Positions 1 to 40,236 of a stretch of 64,000 bases of DNA are shown piece by piece (within the stretch, counting starts at the first letter, position 1; each line of letters starts with the position of its first letter). Below the pieces are notes generated by a model that searched no databases, had not been told where the DNA came from, and saw nothing but the letters and a program-made list of their open reading frames with translations. The translations under genes were made by a program, and so were the position numbers. The stretch is from the NCBI GenBank assembly GCA_014238615.1, contig JABAAT010000007.1, positions 40,736-104,735 on the forward strand. Direction: 5' to 3'. This DNA is from Gammaproteobacteria bacterium. Its GTDB lineage: Bacteria > Pseudomonadota > Gammaproteobacteria > Porifericomitales > Porifericomitaceae.

Positions 1-5769
<5,769 letters not shown>

Positions 5770-19573: not shown

Positions 19574-20290
19574 ATGGAAAACGCCATGGAGAACAGCCTG
19601 GACAAGGGACTGAACACCGACCTGAAGCACCTGGGCCGACGCACGGCTGCCCGGCCCCAGCCCCCCTCCCGCAAGGCCGCGGCCTTGCTGGGACTGGCCT
19701 GCTTTCTCGCCGGTGTTCTCACCGGTGTTTCCGTTAATCCGGAGTTCGGCCGCGCGCCGCCCGAGGTGCAACCTCCCCCAGTCCAAAACGCCGGGGAGCC
19801 TGAAATCACGGCCGAAAAAGACCCCAAACCGATGAAATTCGAGTTCTACACCCTGCTGCCGGAACGCGAAGTGAAAGTGCCGGAATGGAGCGGTGCGCGG
19901 GAACCAGCGCCCCACCATCAGGCGGACGGAGCGAGCGGGGCGGACGGGGCGGACGGCGTCTCGGCGCCACGCGCCGGCTACATGCTGCAGGCCGGTTCTT
20001 TCCGGCTCCTGGAGGAAGCCGAGCGGCACCGTCGAAAACTCGCCGAATTCGGCGTGACGGCGGAGATACAAACGGTGGTTTTGGAGACGGGGGGACGCTG
20101 GCACCGGATCAGAATCGGCCCAAACGCTGATTCGGACGCGCTCAGAAAACTGCAGGCGCGCCTGCGCCGCCACGGCTTCCATTCCATGCTGCTGCGCCTG
20201 CGGCCGAAACCAGTGGAGCCAAAACCGGTAGAGAAAGGCGCGGCTGACACCACGAGCCGCGGAAGCGCTGGACAGACTTGGAGCGGGTGA
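19574..20290 (+). CDS. SPOR-domain protein (FtsN/DedD-like, cell division associated)
   Basis: Starts MENAMENSL. One TM (AALLGLACFLAGVLTGV), a Pro-rich linker, then a C-terminal SPOR-like block YMLQAGSFRLLEEAERHRRKLAEFGVTAEIQTVVLETGGRWHRIRIGP. A SPOR gene downstream of argS is a common arrangement. The 3' end overlaps tRNA-Gly on the opposite strand. Confidence 0.6.
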   Translation: MENAMENSLDKGLNTDLKHLGRRTAARPQPPSRKAAALLGLACFLAGVLTGVSVNPEFGRAPPEVQPPPVQNAGEPEITAEKDPKPMKFEFYTLLPEREVKVPEWSGAREPAPHHQADGASGADGADGVSAPRAGYMLQAGSFRLLEEAERHRRKLAEFGVTAEIQTVVLETGGRWHRIRIGPNADSDALRKLQARLRRHGFHSMLLRLRPKPVEPKPVEKGAADTTSRGSAGQTWSG

Positions 20291-20352
20291 TGGGAATCGA
20301 ACCCACGTCATCAGCTTGGGAAGCTGAGGTTCTGCCATTGAACTACACCCGC
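20279..20352 (-). tRNA. tRNA-Gly (anticodon CCC)
   Basis: Minus-strand sequence GCGGGTGTAGTTCAATGGCAGAACCTCAGCTTCCCAAGCTGATGACGTGGGTTCGATTCCCATCACCCGCTCCA. 7-bp acceptor stem; GTTC/GAAC D-stem; anticodon loop TTCCCAA; T-loop TTCGATTCC; encoded CCA. Near-identical to the E. coli glyU architecture. Confidence 0.85.
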
Positions 20353-28992: not shown

Positions 28993-31806
28993 ATGGAAAA
29001 ACACTACCAGCCCGAACACTTGGAGCGCCGCTGGTACGCGCACTGGGAACAGCAAGGCTGCTTCGCACCGGCTGGAAAAGGCAAGCCCTATTGCATCATG
29101 TTGCCGCCTCCCAACGTCACCGGGCAATTGCACATGGGACACGCCTTTCAGAACACCCTCATGGACCTGCTCATCCGCCGGCAACGCATGGACGGCGGCA
29201 GGGCGCTCTGGCAGGGAGGCGTTGATCACGCCGGCATCGCCACGCAACTCGTCGTGGAACACCAGCTGCGCGCCCAAGGCCAGGAGCCGCGCACCATGGA
29301 GCGCGAAGAGCTGCTGCGCGCGGCCTGGGATTGGCGCACCGCCTCGGGCGACGCCATCACCCGGCAAATGCGCCGCCTGGGCGCCTCCCTGGACTGGAGC
29401 CGCGAACGCTTCACCCTGGATGAAGGCATGTCGAGCGCGGTGTTGGAAGTCTTCCTGGCCCTGCACCGGGAGGGGTTGATCTACCGCGGACAGCGGTTGG
29501 TCAACTGGGATCCTTCGCTCTGCACCGCCGTCTCCGACCTGGAGGTCAGCGCCAGGGAAGAGGACGGCCGGCTCTGGCACCTGCGCTACCCCGTGGTCGG
29601 CACATCCACGACGCTGGTGGTCGCCACCACCCGCCCCGAAACCCTGCTTGGCGACACGGCGTTGGCCGTACACCCGGAGGATGAACGCTACCGCCGCTGG
29701 ATCGGCGGCCGGGCCCGCGTGCCGCTCTGCGATCGGGAGATACCGATCATCGCCGACGACTTCGTGGATCCGCAGTTCGGCAGCGGCTGCGTCAAGGTCA
29801 CACCGGCGCACGATTTCAACGACTATGAGGTCGGCCTCCGCCACAAGCTGCCTTGCCTGAACATCTTCACACCGGAAGCCAGGCTGAATGAGCAGGCGCC
29901 GCCGGCCTTCCGCGGCCTGCAGCGCGGGCGCGCCCGGGAAGCGGTGCTACAGGCGCTGCGTGCACAGGGGTTGCTGGAAAAGGTAGAGCCGCACCGCTTC
30001 AAAGTGCCGCGCTGCGAACGCACCCGGGAAATCGTGGAACCGCTGCTCACCAGGCAGTGGTTCGTGCGCACCGGGCCGCTGGCGGAACCGGCCATTCGGG
30101 CCGTGGAGCAGGGCCGCGTGCGCTTCATCCCCGAAAGCTGGAACGCCACCTACTTCGAGTGGCTGCGCAACATACAGGACTGGTGCATCAGCCGCCAGCT
30201 CTGGTGGGGACACCGCATCCCGGCCTGGTACACCCGGGACGGCGACGTGCACGTCGGCCGCTCGGAAGAGGAGCTGCGGCAACGCGCCGGCCTGTCCCCG
30301 GAAACGGAGCTACGGCGCGATCCAGACGTTCTGGACACCTGGTTTTCCTCGGCCCTGTGGCCTTTTTCTACTCTCGGCTGGCCTCAACAGACCGGTGAAC
30401 TGCGTAGCTTCTACCCCACTTCCGTCCTGGTGACGGGCTTTGACATCATCTTCTTCTGGGTGGCACGCATGATCATGCTGGGACTGAAGTTCACCGGCGA
30501 GGTGCCTTTCCGCGAGGTGTACATACACGGACTGGTGCTGGACAGCACAGGCCAAAAGATGTCGAAATCCAAGGGCAATGTCCTGGATCCACTGGACCTG
30601 GTGGACGGCGTGCAGCTGGAGCCCCTGGTCAAAAAACGCACCCAGGCCCTGCTCCGGCCCGGGGACGCGCCGCGCATTGAGAGTTCCACGCGCCGGGAAT
30701 TCCCTGAAGGCATCCCGGCCTACGGCGCCGATGCGTTGCGCCTGACCTTCACCTCCCTGGCCAGCCTGGGGCGCCGCGAATTGCGTTTTGAAGTGGGCCG
30801 CATCAAGGGCAATCGTCATTTCTGCAATAAACTCTGGAACGCCACCCGCTACGTGCTGGGCGCCGTTTCGGGGCAGGGGGGGGGAAACCCCGGGGGCAAA
30901 CCGCGGAACGCGGCGGAAGCCCCGCCTCCCGGCACCAACGAAGCCTGGATCCTGGCGCGCCTGGGCCGCGCCCTCGGCGCCATCAACAGCGCCCTGGACG
31001 AGTACCGTTTTGACCAGGCGGCGCGCGTGCTGCGCCACTTCGCCTGGGAGGAATACTGCGACTGGTACCTGGAGCTGGCCAAGATCAGCCTCGGCGATGC
31101 GCGCCGCGGCGCGGCGGAAAAAGCGGCCGTGCGGCGCACCCTTCTGGAAGTTCTGGAAGCCTTCCTGCGCCTGGCTCACCCCTTCATTCCCTTCCTCAGC
31201 GAGGAGCTGTGGCGGCGGGTACAGGAGGCGCGCGGGGCCAAGCCGGAGCCGGGGGCGAGCCTCATGTTGCAGCCTTGGCCACGCGCCGAGCAATTCCCCC
31301 GCGCCCCCGGGGCCGAGGCCGAAATACAGTGGCTGCAGGATTTCCTGGGCGCCCTGCGCCAGATGCGCTCTGAAAACCGCTTGGCGCCCGGCAGACTGCT
31401 GCCGCTCTATTGGAGCGGCGGTACCGCGCGGGAACGCACTTGGCTGCATCACCAGGAACACGCGATCCTGGCCCTCGGACGCCTCCGCGGCCTGGAGGAA
31501 AGCCCGCGGCGGGGCGACGCCGCCACCGCCCTGGTCGGCGACATGCTCCTGCAACTACCCCTGGAGGGACTCGTGGACCCCAACGACGAACTGCGGCGGC
31601 TGCGGCGCGAGCTGGAAAAGCTGGACAAACGTCTGCGCTCATCCGAGCAACGCCTGGCCAACCAGGACTTCCTTGAGCGCGCGCCCCCGGAGCTCGTCCA
31701 GCGCGAGCAACAACGCCACGTGGAACTGTCCCAGGCCATGGACAAACTCCAGTACGAGCAACTCCGCCTGCAGGATCAGCCGGGCGACGCGAAGCCTTCT
31801 TCCTGA
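28993..31806 (+). CDS. valS: valine--tRNA ligase
   Basis: 937 aa. HIGH motif PPNVTGQLHMGHA, KMSKS motif, and C-terminal coiled-coil. Confidence 0.95.
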   Translation: MEKHYQPEHLERRWYAHWEQQGCFAPAGKGKPYCIMLPPPNVTGQLHMGHAFQNTLMDLLIRRQRMDGGRALWQGGVDHAGIATQLVVEHQLRAQGQEPRTMEREELLRAAWDWRTASGDAITRQMRRLGASLDWSRERFTLDEGMSSAVLEVFLALHREGLIYRGQRLVNWDPSLCTAVSDLEVSAREEDGRLWHLRYPVVGTSTTLVVATTRPETLLGDTALAVHPEDERYRRWIGGRARVPLCDREIPIIADDFVDPQFGSGCVKVTPAHDFNDYEVGLRHKLPCLNIFTPEARLNEQAPPAFRGLQRGRAREAVLQALRAQGLLEKVEPHRFKVPRCERTREIVEPLLTRQWFVRTGPLAEPAIRAVEQGRVRFIPESWNATYFEWLRNIQDWCISRQLWWGHRIPAWYTRDGDVHVGRSEEELRQRAGLSPETELRRDPDVLDTWFSSALWPFSTLGWPQQTGELRSFYPTSVLVTGFDIIFFWVARMIMLGLKFTGEVPFREVYIHGLVLDSTGQKMSKSKGNVLDPLDLVDGVQLEPLVKKRTQALLRPGDAPRIESSTRREFPEGIPAYGADALRLTFTSLASLGRRELRFEVGRIKGNRHFCNKLWNATRYVLGAVSGQGGGNPGGKPRNAAEAPPPGTNEAWILARLGRALGAINSALDEYRFDQAARVLRHFAWEEYCDWYLELAKISLGDARRGAAEKAAVRRTLLEVLEAFLRLAHPFIPFLSEELWRRVQEARGAKPEPGASLMLQPWPRAEQFPRAPGAEAEIQWLQDFLGALRQMRSENRLAPGRLLPLYWSGGTARERTWLHHQEHAILALGRLRGLEESPRRGDAATALVGDMLLQLPLEGLVDPNDELRRLRRELEKLDKRLRSSEQRLANQDFLERAPPELVQREQQRHVELSQAMDKLQYEQLRLQDQPGDAKPSS

Positions 31807-32042
31807 TGCTGCGCATCCTCCAGGAAGACATCCAGGTGGTCTTTGAACGCGACCCGGCGGCGCGTGGCGCCGAGGGGCCTTCTTCCTGATGCTGCGCATC
31901 CTCCAGGAAGACATCCAGGTGGTCTTTGAACGCGACCCGGCGGCGCGTGGCGCCAAGGGGCCTTCTTCCTGATGCTGCGCATCCTCCAGGAAGACATCCA
32001 GGTGGTCTTTGAACGCGACCCGGCGGCGCGCTCCCGCTGGCA
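31794..32042 (+). repeat. 83-bp direct tandem repeat, 3 copies (starts 31794, 31877, 31960), spanning the valS stop and cysE start codon
   Basis: The unit GCCTTCTTCCTGATGCTGCGCATCCTCCAGGAAGACATCCAGGTGGTCTTTGAACGCGACCCGGCGGCGCG(T/C)... is repeated with one or two substitutions (GCCGAGGGG vs GCCAAGGGG). Copies 1 and 2 each carry an ATG (31806, 31889) opening a 27-codon [25 protein letters not shown](E/K)GPSS*. Copy 3 carries the real cysE ATG (31972). Confidence 0.9.
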
Positions 32043-32727
32043 AGTGCTCACCACCAGCCCCGGCCTGCACGCCATCTGGCTGCACCGCCTGAACCATGCC
32101 CTGTGGCGCCGCGGCTGCCACTGGACGGCCAGGTTCCTGGCCCACCTCGGACGCTTTTTCACCGGTATCGAGATCCACCCGGGCGCCAGCATCGGGAAAC
32201 GCTTCTTCATCGACCACGGCCACGGCATCGTCATCGGCGAGACCTCCGAAATAGGCGCCGACTGCTCCATCTACCACGGTGTCACCCTGGGCGGCACCAC
32301 CTGGCAGCCGGGCAAACGCCACCCCACGCTGGAGGACGGGGTCGTGCTGGGCGCCGGGGCAAAGATCCTCGGCCCCATCGTGCTCGGCAAAGGCGCCCGC
32401 ATCGGCTCCAACTCCGTGGTCACCCACCCGGTCCCACCGGGAGCCACGATCGTGGGCGTGCCGGGACAGATCGTCAAGACCCGGGCGGGCCGGGCCTCCT
32501 CCGCGGAACCCGCCAGGGAACATCCCTTCGATGCCTACGCCAGCAGTGCAGACGAAGCCAACCCCGTGCAGGAAGAAATCCAACAACTACTGGGCAGGAT
32601 AGGCGCCCTGTCGGAAGAGCTGCACACCCTGAGGGACAGGCTCAATCACGACGCCGGGCAGCAGGACCGCAAGGACCGAAAAGACCCCAGCCAGGCCCCG
32701 CCCCCGGAGCAGGACCCGGAAGACTGA
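31972..32727 (+). CDS. cysE: serine O-acetyltransferase
   Basis: Hexapeptide-repeat core [44 protein letters not shown]; N-terminal ERDPAARS. Unusual ~60-aa charged C-terminal extension. Confidence 0.85.
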
Positions 32728-33016
32728 GGAAACATCACAACAAGAGACCACCGCGTGGTCCTGCGTCCCGGCATCCAACCTGGTCTCCAGGCCGTGTTCG
32801 CGCTTCGCGCGCTGAACCTCATCCCCCCTGGGAAGCGCCCAGCAGCGCCCAGCTGATACGCCCGGCGGTCCTGGCAGATACGCTGGAGAGAGACCAAGGC
32901 AGACCGTCCCCAACGTACCTCCGCACTAGAACCTGCCGTGCGCTCGGCCCACCTCTCGGAACTCCGCGCTTGCCCGGCCGCGGAGAAATACAAGGCGATC
33001 CTACAATCCGTCGTCC

Positions 33017-33500
33017 CTATAATTTGTTGTCATTGACGAATTTTTGGAACTCCGGAATGCTGAATACATGCAGGAGCCAGGCTTTCCCTGCCTGGTTCCG
33101 TAACCACTGCTCCGCTCCCTCCGAGTAGCCGCCACCATCCAGCACGACTAGCGTGCTGATACCGGAATCTTCGATTGTCAATACCAGGAATGGGAATTTT
33201 TCCTCCACGCTCCCGGAAGACTGCTGCCACTTGCCTTCAATCACAAGTCCGTTCGGGTGCCTGGTGGGGTGGTACAGGATAAAGTCGCACTTGTTGGTTA
33301 CGTCTGTACGGGTCTCTCCCTATCGGATACTGCCTGGCATAAATCGGTTGCCCCTTGCATTTCAGCGTGGCGAATTCCGCCGCGTCAGCGCGCTGATACC
33401 CGGCCCGCTCTACCACGCTGGAGATAATCTCCTCCAGGTTACTTCCGGTCTTGTTAGCTCGATGACCTTGTTGATCAGGTGCTTGTGATGATGGTTTCAT
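33017..33500 (-). pseudogene. PD-(D/E)XK nuclease-like gene split by a -1 frameshift (candidate degraded restriction endonuclease)
   Basis: Two overlapping minus-strand ORFs (33237..33500 and 33017..33244). When joined they read ...KCDFILYHPTRHPNGLVIEGKWQQSSGSVEEK..., i.e. D...(E)xK spacing. Immediately downstream of, and overlapping, a Dam-family MTase. Local GC about 50%. Confidence 0.45.
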
Positions 33501-34464
33501 TTCGGTCGCCGCGGTCTTCCGCCCTGCAGTTGATGGTGCCTGCCGCTTTTGCCGTATGGATTGTCCAATGCACGGACTTGTAAAGTTTGCGGATGAACGG
33601 CGTGTCTGAGTTGGAGATGATCACCGCTGCTCCCGCCTTACGCCAACCGTCCGCACACTTTGCAAGGTGTTGCTGTGCCTCGCTGTTGAAACGATGAGCC
33701 GTATATTGATCGTAGGTCTCATCGTAGGGCGGATCGCAATAGACCAGGTCGCCCTCCCGCGGTGCAATCGCATCAAAAAGCTGCCTTTGCAGGTCTGCCT
33801 CTTTGAGTGTTGCGGATACGGCGCGCAGGTTATCGGCATCAACGATCGCGGGGTTTTTGTATCGACCGATTGGAACATTGAACCTCCCCGAACGATTGAC
33901 GCGATACAGACCGTTGAAACAAGTCTTGTTGAGATAAATAAACCGCGCAGCCCTCTCAATCGGATCCTCTATCCCGTCCTTCCCGCGGATGACTTTATAG
34001 TGCCGCGGTGAATGCCGGCACCGGTGGGCTTTCAATTTCTCTACCAGCTGATCGCAGTGCTGCTGGATCATTTTGTAGGCAATCATTAACTCCGGGTTAG
34101 CGTCCGACAGGTGCGCCCGGGTGATACGGTTTTCAATGGCGTAGAACAGCGCCCCTCCGCCCACAAACGGCTCCCAGTACTCCTCGATGGTGTCCGGCAG
34201 GTGTTTCAGCAGGTCGGGTACCAGCGACCGCTTACCGCCCGCCCACTTGACGAATGGGCGGGCCCGCACCCCGGACGTCGGATGCACTCCGCATAAGCCA
34301 GCCAGGCGGCCGTTCGTGGGCGCCTTGCCCGTGTGCGCCTTGCCATTGACATCTTCCGGCCCCCCGCGGCCGACGGCAGGCCGACGGCAGGCCGACGGCT
34401 GCACGCTTCCGCCCGCACCCGGCGGAGTGGGGATCGGGATGGAGCTATTCCGGGCGGCGGGCAC
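33475..34464 (-). CDS. Dam-family (D12 class) N6-adenine DNA methyltransferase
   Basis: Motifs FVKWAGGKRSL (SAM/motif I), DPPY (motif IV), and FxNGLYRVNRSGRFNVP. The true start is probably internal (GTG near 34270); the first ~65 codons are GC-rich low-complexity and contain a 10-mer tandem repeat. GC about 55%. Confidence 0.8.
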   Translation of the reverse strand: MPAARNSSIPIPTPPGAGGSVQPSACRRPAVGRGGPEDVNGKAHTGKAPTNGRLAGLCGVHPTSGVRARPFVKWAGGKRSLVPDLLKHLPDTIEEYWEPFVGGGALFYAIENRITRAHLSDANPELMIAYKMIQQHCDQLVEKLKAHRCRHSPRHYKVIRGKDGIEDPIERAARFIYLNKTCFNGLYRVNRSGRFNVPIGRYKNPAIVDADNLRAVSATLKEADLQRQLFDAIAPREGDLVYCDPPYDETYDQYTAHRFNSEAQQHLAKCADGWRKAGAAVIISNSDTPFIRKLYKSVHWTIHTAKAAGTINCRAEDRGDRNETIITST

Positions 34465-34474
34465 GGGCTACCGC

Positions 34475-35032
34475 CTAGAAGGGGATATCGTCGTCAAAGT
34501 CCTCCCCGCCACCGGAATCGGCGGGTCCGGGCGCGCTCTCCCGGGGAGCGCGGGGCGCACTTTCCCGGCCGCCGCCGCGCGTCGGTGCGCCGCGCCGGCG
34601 CTCACCACCACCGTCCGCCCCCCCGGACGGGCCCCCGGACGGGCCATCGTACGACTCCCCCCCCTGCGACGGGGGCTCGCCGGATGTCTCCCCACGGCGG
34701 TCCAGCATCATCATGTCGTTGCCGACGACCTCGGTGTTGTAGCGATCGCGGCCTTCCTGGTCCTGCCACTTGCGGGTCTGCAGGCGTCCTTCCAGGTAGA
34801 TGCGGGAGCCCTTGCGCAGATATTGCTCGGCGACCTCGGCGGTGCGCCCGAAAAGCACCACCCGGTGCCACTCGGTGTGGTCGATCCATTCGCCGCTGTC
34901 GCGATCCTTCCGCCGATCGGTGGTGGCCACGCGTAGATTGGCCACCGTCACCCCACTCTGGGTGCTGCGTGCCTCCGGATCGGCGCCTAAATTGCCGACC
35001 AGTATGACTTTATTGATGCCTCGACCTGCCAT
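34475..35032 (-). CDS. ssb: single-stranded DNA-binding protein
   Basis: OB-fold N-terminus [20 protein letters not shown]; Gly-rich tail ending DFDDDIPF. Divergent from uvrA. Confidence 0.9.
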
Positions 35033-39657: not shown

Positions 39658-40236
39658 ATGAGTGATTCAAACCTTGGCGATGCCAACCTGAACAAGGAAA
39701 GCCTGCGCGGGGAAGACCTGCACGGAGCCGATTTGACCGGGGTCGACCTGAAAGGGAGGGACCTGAGCGGTGCCAACCTGAGCGGTGCCAACCTGCGTGG
39801 CGCCGACCTGCGCGACGCCAACCTGGGCGGAGCCGACCTGCGCTGCGCCAACCTGAGCATCAAGGACGATATGAGCCCAACCAACCTGAGCGGCGCCAAC
39901 CTGGGCAAAGCCGACCTGCGCGGCGCCAAGCTATACGGAGCCACCCTGCGCAATGCCGACCTGCGCAATGCCGACCTGCGCGGCGCCAAGCTGTATGGAG
40001 CCGACCTGCGCGATGCCGACCTGCGCGATGCCGACTTGCGTAATGCCGCCCTGTTCGACGTCGACCTGACCGATGCCAACCTGCGCGCGGCCGACCTGGG
40101 CGATGCCACCCTGAGCGATGCCACCCTGAGCGATGCCGACCTGAGCGATGCCAACCTGCGTGGCACCGACCTGAGCGATGCCGATCTGCGTGGAGCCAAC
40201 CTGGACGGAGCCAAGCTGGACGACGAAGTCAATTAG
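39658..40236 (+). CDS. pentapeptide-repeat protein (Qnr/MfpA-like fold)
   Basis: 192 aa of A(D/N)LxG pentapeptide repeats in two blocks separated by SIKDDMSPT. AGGAGG RBS 7 nt upstream of the ATG. Confidence 0.8.
   Translation: MSDSNLGDANLNKESLRGEDLHGADLTGVDLKGRDLSGANLSGANLRGADLRDANLGGADLRCANLSIKDDMSPTNLSGANLGKADLRGAKLYGATLRNADLRNADLRGAKLYGADLRDADLRDADLRNAALFDVDLTDANLRAADLGDATLSDATLSDADLSDANLRGTDLSDADLRGANLDGAKLDDEVN

Follow-up and report, generated by a model that had tools for sequence, protein, structure and literature searches.

The valS-cysE boundary

The window, that is, the whole 64-kb stretch of DNA that was analysed, contains the co-oriented genes valS and cysE and a tandem array that lies where the first gene stops and the second starts. 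ValS scored 1158 bits against NF004349 and 1034 bits against TIGR00422, CysE scored 239.8 bits against TIGR01172, and both proteins passed the curated cut-offs (704 bits for NF004349, ValS, and 210.65 bits for TIGR01172, CysE). The features of the boundary are as follows.

28993..31806, + strand: valS, valine--tRNA ligase, 937 aa, intact; its last 13 nt sit in repeat copy 1
31794..31864, + strand: core copy 1, 71 nt, with the valS end, the TGATG overlap and cysE codons 1-19 plus 2 nt
31806..31889, + strand: mini-ORF 1, 27 codons, its start overlapping the valS stop and its stop overlapping the next ATG
31865..31876, + strand: junction J1, TGGCGCCGAGGG, 12 nt
31877..31947, + strand: core copy 2, 71 nt, identical to copy 1
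31889..31972, + strand: mini-ORF 2, 27 codons, ending in …ARGAKGPSS, its stop overlapping the cysE ATG
31948..31959, + strand: junction J2, TGGCGCCAAGGG, 12 nt, with a G-to-A change relative to J1 at 31955
31960..32030, + strand: core copy 3, 71 nt, running on into native cysE
31972..32727, + strand: cysE, serine O-acetyltransferase, 251 aa, intact

TRF placed the array at 31794-32030 with a period of 83, 2.9 copies, 99% matches and a score of 467, and by a wide margin it is the strongest tandem repeat of the window, far exceeding chance. The earlier note described three near-identical 83-bp copies, each carrying 13 nt from the valS end and ~70 nt from the cysE start. The array is present at that place, but only a 71-nt core, 100% identical throughout, occurs in all three copies, and the remaining 12 nt occur twice. 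The core consists of the 13 nt of the valS end and 59 nt of the cysE start with one base common to both, and the valS share was thus given correctly while the cysE share was overstated. The 12-nt junction, TGGCGCC[G/A]AGGG, follows core copies 1 and 2 and is absent after copy 3; in context it reads GGCGGCGCG-TGGCGCC[G/A]AGGG-GCCTTC. The 'one or two substitutions' said to distinguish the copies are exactly one, a G at 31872 in J1 versus an A at 31955 in J2.

The junction comes from neither flank, as no match to it was found 5' of copy 1 or 3' of copy 3, and this rules out a simple duplication of the form X-S-S-S-Y. It is also ruled out as a diverged valS tail, since 5 of its 12 positions do not agree with the valS flank whereas the cores show 0 mismatches over 3 x 71 nt; this pattern fits a filler put in at the first event and not slow divergence. 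A CRISPR-like array was rejected as well, the 'spacers' being 12 nt long and the same but for one base.

One-base TGATG overlaps at 31804-31808, 31887-31891 and 31970-31974 in the ORF list chain valS, mini-ORF 1, mini-ORF 2 and cysE. The two 27-codon ATG-initiated ORFs that had been reported ahead of the authentic cysE ATG are thus in place, and the start assigned to cysE is confirmed by a homologue alignment in which E7, D8, F13, R15, D16, P17, A18, A19 and R20 are invariant in 8 homologues. A single peptide had been given for both mini-ORFs; their common length of 27 codons stands, but the sequences are one residue apart (…GAEGPSS in mini-ORF 1 versus …GAKGPSS in mini-ORF 2). A family search with mini-ORF 1 gave no match. 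Each extra copy contributes a chained 27-codon ORF that ends on the next ATG because the period of 83 equals 3x27+2 and the stop and start overlap, and valS and cysE stay unaltered whatever the copy number because the first copy supplies the valS end and the last copy supplies the cysE start. A ValS-CysE fusion by read-through of the stop codon was also considered, as cysE lies in the valS frame at three copies, but a second in-frame stop in copy 2 rules it out.

Relatives, sister assemblies and copy number

A single valS/cysE junction with an overlapping stop and start was found in three relatives (CysE 75, 67 and 61% identical), with a 1-nt TGATG overlap at locus L005 and 8-nt overlaps at L021 and L022/L023. 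The ancestral state is a valS and cysE pair overlapping by one base (TGATG), which is kept in the closest relative. L005, L021 and L022 each have one cysE 5' end, to which the cysE part of the core aligns gap-free; this part is therefore native sequence. In relatives that have the valS/cysE order, the two genes overlap by up to 8 nt or lie up to 2 nt apart at six loci (five contexts), and at one further locus they are 170 nt apart. A tandem repeat across the cysE start was found in none of 99 other cysE loci. The relatives returned from the genome collection had at most 57% identity and none had valS upstream of cysE, a metagenome scan with the CysE profile yielded 80 loci, all at or below 60% identity, and the array junction had no match in JGI metagenome contigs. 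The single junction in relatives together with the lack of a repeat at all 99 other loci indicates that the array is derived, recent and private to its population. Identical cores, the single junctions of the closest relatives and the survey of other cysE loci agree with the recent local amplification that had been proposed, and with the expectation of a single copy in related genomes.

Four more assemblies of the same population (L001-L004; sample ids BUSC20-1 and SAMN14422895-98) are 99.98-100% identical to the window, which shows a uniform population and a recent event. Outside the array about 1 SNP was found in ~30 kb of pairwise comparison within the population. The novel junction is present in the window and in L001, L002 and L004, and its presence in assemblies from different samples demonstrates that at least a duplication is real. 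In these short-read assemblies two copies at least are certain; three copies are probable, the exact count being beyond what short-read assemblies can fix. Over the five assemblies, three copies are contiguous in two (the window and L002), an N-gap falls within the array in two and a contig ends within it in one.

It is possible, though we consider it unlikely, that the copy number is an assembly artefact, that is, that there is only a duplication (two cores and one junction) with G and A as strain alleles, or a variable or larger number of copies, a loop in the assembly graph having been walked twice. The array is broken in three of the five assemblies, with 100-N scaffold gaps in L001 and L004 and a contig end in L003, and a 55-nt, k-mer-sized part of the core marks each break: the L003 contig ends at core position 55, an L004 contig begins with the final 55 nt of a core, and in L001 two contigs have a 55-mer in common, the break falling precisely on the G/A site. 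Contigs that end, restart and overlap exactly 55 nt into a 71-nt core are the hallmark of de Bruijn assembly at k=55, where the core is a repeat node that the graph could not resolve. In addition, L002 has G at both junctions, at odds with the window. On the other hand, three copies were obtained in two independent assemblies, and the G,G of L002 is what bubble collapse would yield. In the window, L001 and L004 alike, it is the A-form junction that adjoins the final copy, which is what would be seen with G and A at two positions of one molecule, and a strain SNP falling by chance within a 12-nt junction is unlikely at the SNP density of this population. The earlier note took the substitution as proof that the triplication is real sequence. 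This argument is weak, because at k=55 one loop of the graph carries the G and A junctions as parallel branches and the substitution alone fails to separate two positions from two alleles. More generally, a 71-nt exact repeat suffices to break k=55 metagenome assemblies, and the copy numbers of such arrays in MAGs are not to be trusted.

Probable origin and proposed translation of the array

The array is most probably a recent, lineage-private short tandem amplification, in an uncultured gammaproteobacterium, at the point where valS stops and cysE starts, and would act as a passive relay and not as a regulatory device. One replication accident, by slippage or template switch, may have fused codon 20 of cysE to a site lying 13 nt ahead of the valS stop, and 12 nt of filler at the join would have produced the 83-bp unit. 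The two units would then have given rise to a third, either by slippage or by unequal exchange, and a later G to A change would have altered one junction. One possible template for the filler was located in the window.

19960..19976, - strand: 17-nt exact match, CGGCGCGTGGCGCCGAG, to a stretch that covers the final 7 nt of the core and 10 nt from the start of J1

Beyond the match come 2 mismatches, and its empirical chance, taken from 30-mers just as rich in GC, is ~2.5%; as a template for the junction filler it is suggestive only.

The mini-ORF starts are embedded in exactly the same sequence as the true start of cysE, and every mini-ORF stop overlaps the start that follows. From this geometry a passage of ribosomes from valS through the two mini-ORFs to cysE is plausible: ribosomes ending valS would most likely restart on mini-ORF 1, then on mini-ORF 2 and then on cysE. 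The array would be a passive relay in which coupled cysE translation is either unaffected or slightly lowered.

A selected regulatory device, in which leader peptides, a translational rheostat set by copy number or a ribosome-binding site in the junction would tune CysE relative to ValS, is by comparison highly improbable. The stops and starts are perfectly chained, but such chaining follows automatically from the period and would be expected by chance in 1 of 3 duplications that include a TGATG junction. A tight valS/cysE junction is kept in most relatives with the same gene order, which suggests that coupling matters, and MIRU arrays are a precedent (PMC12548453); the identical cores, however, carry no conservation signal, and nothing similar was found in any relative or other lineage. 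In copies 2 and 3 the junction puts a GAGG or AAGG ahead of the ATG. This match to a Shine-Dalgarno (SD) sequence is 4 nt long and lies 13 nt from the ATG, and a new ribosome-binding site was rejected on this ground, the match being uninformative where most neighbouring genes have weak or no clear SDs. The array is found in at least four samples, and the persistence of an unstable repeat could hint at selection, but the samples belong to one project and one near-clonal population.

A role as leader peptides, which the earlier note had raised, or in attenuation is not supported. The mini-ORFs have no Cys or other diagnostic codons, and their sole Met is the initiator. No terminator-like site was found on the + strand between 31300 and 33200 and no promoter-like site within the array, a terminator/antiterminator pair is absent, and the array region matches no Rfam family. 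The RNA folds are no more stable than those of shuffled sequence (z of -0.4 to -1.3). A hairpin of UCUUCCUG…CAGGAAGA around the UGAUG of every copy was rejected, as the folds do not exceed the shuffles and the sequence is not conserved in L005. A duplication over an overlapping stop and start keeps both genes whole and yields chained mini-ORFs automatically, and for this reason such mini-ORFs are not to be read as leader peptides without further evidence. The array is a real but ordinary repeat whose only by-products are the two mini-ORFs, both genes being intact.

Comparison with known systems

Short tandem duplications and minisatellite-type VNTRs of bacteria originate by slipped-strand events or template switching and grow by unequal exchange. 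Like these, the valS-cysE array consists of near-identical head-to-tail copies, beyond chance, of a local native unit that is present once in relatives; its junction is absent from relatives, the flanking genes are intact and the copy number is probably unstable. Unlike the VNTRs, the first join here contains 12 nt of filler in place of a clean microhomology, and the segment spans an overlapping stop and start and thus yields a complete ORF per copy.

Translational coupling is usually rationalized by the genes encoding subunits of one complex, and we know of no complex of which the valS and cysE products are both subunits. The geometry of coupled gene pairs is present, with co-oriented genes and a UGAUG stop/start overlap at the ancestral valS/cysE pair and at every junction of the array. 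Termination-reinitiation coupling at such overlapping pairs is covered by a review (PMC12548453, citing Huber et al. 2019 and 2023).

The closest known arrays are the MIRUs, a dispersed and apparently mobile family at many mycobacterial loci in which coupling is by a 4-nt overlap (PMC12548453). In M. tuberculosis H37Rv, for example, senX3 and regX3 are separated by three 77-bp units (PMC4213456; review PMC12548453). The two share tandem units of ~80 bp between co-oriented genes and a short ORF that ends in an overlap with the next start, and this layout, in which the ORF of each unit is coupled to the next (PMC12548453, PMC4213456), would favor a MIRU-like mobile repeat that was inserted at the cysE start codon and then expanded. 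Such an insertion is almost certainly not what happened. The core is not foreign: its first 13 nt are the plain end of the same genome's valS, its 59 nt of cysE code for the conserved N-terminus of CysE and can be aligned gap-free with the single-copy 5' ends of cysE in three relatives, and the 12 nt of the junction alone are non-native. No other copy of the core occurs within the window or in L001-L004. The core as an inserted mobile element is thereby refuted, as it is the valS 3' end joined to the conserved cysE 5' end.

The valS-cysE array is instead a functional analogue of MIRU and not a member of the family. An ORF overlapping the neighboring stop and start is common to both, and the relaying of ribosomes downstream with little effect on expression, of which MIRU units are capable, would be shared by functional analogy. 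The differences are that the unit here derives from the flanking genes' own sequence, that it was seen at one locus of the gammaproteobacterial sequence searched and that the overlap is 1 nt. There is a slight chance that a relay of the MIRU kind has been caught at birth from the genes' own boundary, with a variable copy number, and kept because the added termination-reinitiation steps or the SD-like GAGG/AAGG reset CysE per ValS. If the copy number varied and altered CysE output, the array would be a natural example of a MIRU-like relay born from local sequence.

Anatomy of the valS-cysE array

The strongest tandem repeat of the entire window lies at the junction of valS and cysE, where Tandem Repeats Finder places an array at 31794-32030 (period 83, 2.9 copies, 99% matches, score 467). 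The earlier note had described a tandem repeat at this junction, and both its reality and its coordinates are confirmed by the sequence of 31500-32400 and by the program. The array is built from 71-nt cores and 12-nt junctions (J).

Features of the valS-cysE region
28993-31806, valS, 937-codon ORF, valine--tRNA ligase (NF004349, 1158 bits, cut-off 704)
31794-31864, core copy 1, 71 nt
31806-31889, mini-ORF 1, 27 codons
31865-31876, J after copy 1, 12 nt, TGGCGCCGAGGG
31877-31947, core copy 2, 71 nt
31889-31972, mini-ORF 2, 27 codons
31948-31959, J after copy 2, 12 nt, TGGCGCCAAGGG
31960-32030, core copy 3, 71 nt
31972-32727, cysE, 251-codon ORF, serine O-acetyltransferase CysE (TIGR01172, 239.8 bits, cut-off 210.65)

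There are no mismatches among the three cores. Each contains the last 13 nt of valS, as had been noted, and the first 59 nt of cysE rather than the ~70 nt first proposed, with the A of TGATG common to both genes. The "one or two substitutions" thought to separate the copies reduce to exactly one, a G/A difference between the two full units (31872 vs 31955). J differs at 5 positions from the 12 nt before copy 1 (GGGCGACGCGAA) and at 9 from the 12 nt after copy 3 (CTCCCGCTGGCA). Because it equals neither flank, the array cannot be a single genomic segment simply repeated; it reads as flank-core-J-core-J-core-flank, with J as filler. Elsewhere in the window, a long degenerate tandem array at 39761-40218 (period 15/45 nt, ~29 x 15 nt, 69-70% matches, consensus ACCTGCGCGATGCCA) appears to encode a pentapeptide-repeat protein.

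Copy number in five assemblies

Four other metagenome assemblies of the locus (ENA, BUSC20-1, SAMN14422895-98) match it at 99.98-100% identity and thus sample one near-clonal population.

The array in the window and in the other assemblies (L001-L004)
Window, three contiguous copies, junction alleles G then A
L002, three contiguous copies, junction alleles G and G
L001, 100-N scaffold gap beginning exactly at the G/A site, A adjoining the last copy
L004, sequence begins 55 nt ahead of a core end and breaks into a 100-N gap 55 nt into the following core, A
L003, contig stops after 55 nt of copy 1, before any junction

Wherever a repeat exceeds k, a de Bruijn assembler run at k=55 leaves 55-nt marks. 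Positions 1-55 of L002 correspond to window 30661-30715, and the remainder of that contig begins at 30313; this is a chimeric contig start of k-mer length, which supports k=55 in these assemblies. The graph of such an assembler represents the core as a single node and the junction as a loop, with the G and A forms on parallel branches, and the number of passes through the loop is not countable from the graph itself. The substitution had been offered as proof that the triplication is real; as a pair of parallel branches, it fails to prove this on its own. Since J occurs not only in the window but also in three further assemblies of different samples, a duplication, with at least two copies, is certain. 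Judging by the assemblies alone, three copies are probable, because three is the count in two assemblies, the A junction adjoins the last copy in three assemblies and the G,G form of L002 is the expected product of bubble collapse. The copy number (at least two, probably three) is not trustworthy from these assemblies.

Ancestral state and origin of the array

The closest distinct relative, L005 (CysE 75% and ValS 74% identical), was reached by exact-sequence look-up and homology search; it carries the single junction that the earlier note had expected, as do L021 (67%) and L022/L023 (61%). In L005 the last base of valS is also the first of cysE, within …CACGCTGATGCTGCGC…; the 782-kb contig with this locus has a name (ptg000040l) whose style appears typical of a long-read assembler. 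L021 and L022/L023 keep the order pepA-holC-valS-cysE, with an 8-nt overlap. The cysE part of the core aligns without gaps from the ATG onward to these single junctions and is homologous to them, so the core is native gene sequence. Of 99 further cysE loci, drawn from genomes and metagenomes, only seven have valS upstream, and in none does a tandem repeat span the cysE start. This makes the array derived and peculiar to the window's population, and the identical cores indicate that it is recent, in keeping with the amplification suggested before.

Several other differences were observed at these loci. The C-terminal tail of ValS differs between the window (31770-31806, …QDQPGDAKPSS) and L005 (4960-5001, …KEDPPVTSPPDTTR), and the cysE start that follows it is conserved. 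Downstream of cysE (33017-35032, minus strand) the window encodes a 75-aa PDDEXK_11 protein, a D12-class adenine methyltransferase (33475-34464) and ssb (34475-35032), then uvrA, whereas in L005 (5897-10668) a Metallophos protein and one of 1160 aa are encoded; this stretch is thus variable and may be an inserted segment. A Thiomargarita MAG locus (L006) has an unrelated intergenic 62-bp x 3.7 tandem repeat (3667-3908) just upstream of cysE (start 4001); a second repeat there, 137 bp x 1.8, lies at 1295-1544.

J as a diverged copy of the valS tail is ruled out by 5 differences in 12 nt against none in 3 x 71 nt of core; most likely J entered with the first event. Nowhere else in the window does the junction find a match longer than 17 nt; the 17-nt match is exact (CGGCGCGTGGCGCCGAG, 19960-19976, minus strand), covers the final 7 nt of the core plus the initial 10 nt of J, and is followed by two mismatches. 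It hints at a microhomology-primed template switch without proving it; 11 of 432 equally GC-rich window 30-mers (2.5%) have a match of at least 17 nt elsewhere. The matching site lies ~300 nt from the window's only tRNA gene, tRNA-Gly(CCC) (20279-20352, minus strand). Unequal exchange or slippage between 83-bp units would suffice to turn two units into three, and the G-to-A change would have come after this second step.

Proposed translation through the array and comparison with known repeats

The ORF list and the homologue alignment bear out two 27-codon ATG mini-ORFs ahead of the authentic cysE ATG in copy 3. That start is assigned because CysE residues 7-20 (ED…F.RDPAAR) are invariant and the seven aligned homologues begin at the same position. 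As the first copy ends valS and the last starts cysE, both genes are intact whatever the copy number. From valS through both mini-ORFs to cysE, each stop shares one base with the start that follows (TGATG). With a period of 83 (3 x 27 + 2) and this overlap, the TGA of each following copy falls in frame with the preceding ATG; the 27-codon ORFs are thereby shown to follow from the arithmetic as a by-product, one that any duplication of this type of junction would yield with a chance of 1 in 3. Three copies add 2 x 83 = 166 nt, which places cysE (31972) in the reading frame of valS (28993); between the two starts stand the valS stop and, in copy 2, another in-frame TGA, and a valS-CysE fusion protein by single read-through is therefore ruled out.

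The mini-ORF start contexts are identical to that of cysE from -12 to +59, so whatever mode initiates a single-copy cysE would also start mini-ORF 1. The likeliest mode is reinitiation once valS translation has terminated, given that coupling efficiency is highest at very short intergenic distances (PMC12548453). Termination at each UGAUG could pass the ribosome onward, and cysE, two reinitiation steps further from valS, would probably experience a neutral or mildly reducing effect. A role of the mini-ORFs as leader peptides or regulators of cysE had also been proposed. No promoter-like or plus-strand terminator-like site was found in 31300-33200, no Rfam family was found, the folds of each unit and of the reconstructed single junction are not more stable than shuffles (z -0.4 to -1.3), and the mini-ORFs contain no Cys codon; their peptide matches no curated model. 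A GAGG/AAGG from J sits 13 nt from the ATG, and clear SD motifs are mostly absent in neighbouring genes too. None of the tests run lends support to the regulatory readings.

In sum, a gene boundary has been amplified in tandem, recently and in this population only, with both genes left intact and mini-ORFs as by-products. By kind the array is a short tandem duplication or minisatellite-type repeat, a further instance of an already known kind. The closest described system by layout is the mycobacterial MIRU array, in which tandem units of ~77 bp lie between operon genes, three of them between senX3 and regX3 in H37Rv (PMC4213456). MIRU elements are a dispersed family in mycobacteria, whereas the unit described here, from a gammaproteobacterium by the names given to CysE homologues, is not dispersed within the window and L001-L004, nor is it foreign DNA, and so lacks the features that define that family. 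The ORF inside a MIRU comes to be coupled with the gene that follows it "with minimal impact on expression" (PMC12548453), and by analogy the valS-cysE array would act likewise, as a passive relay.
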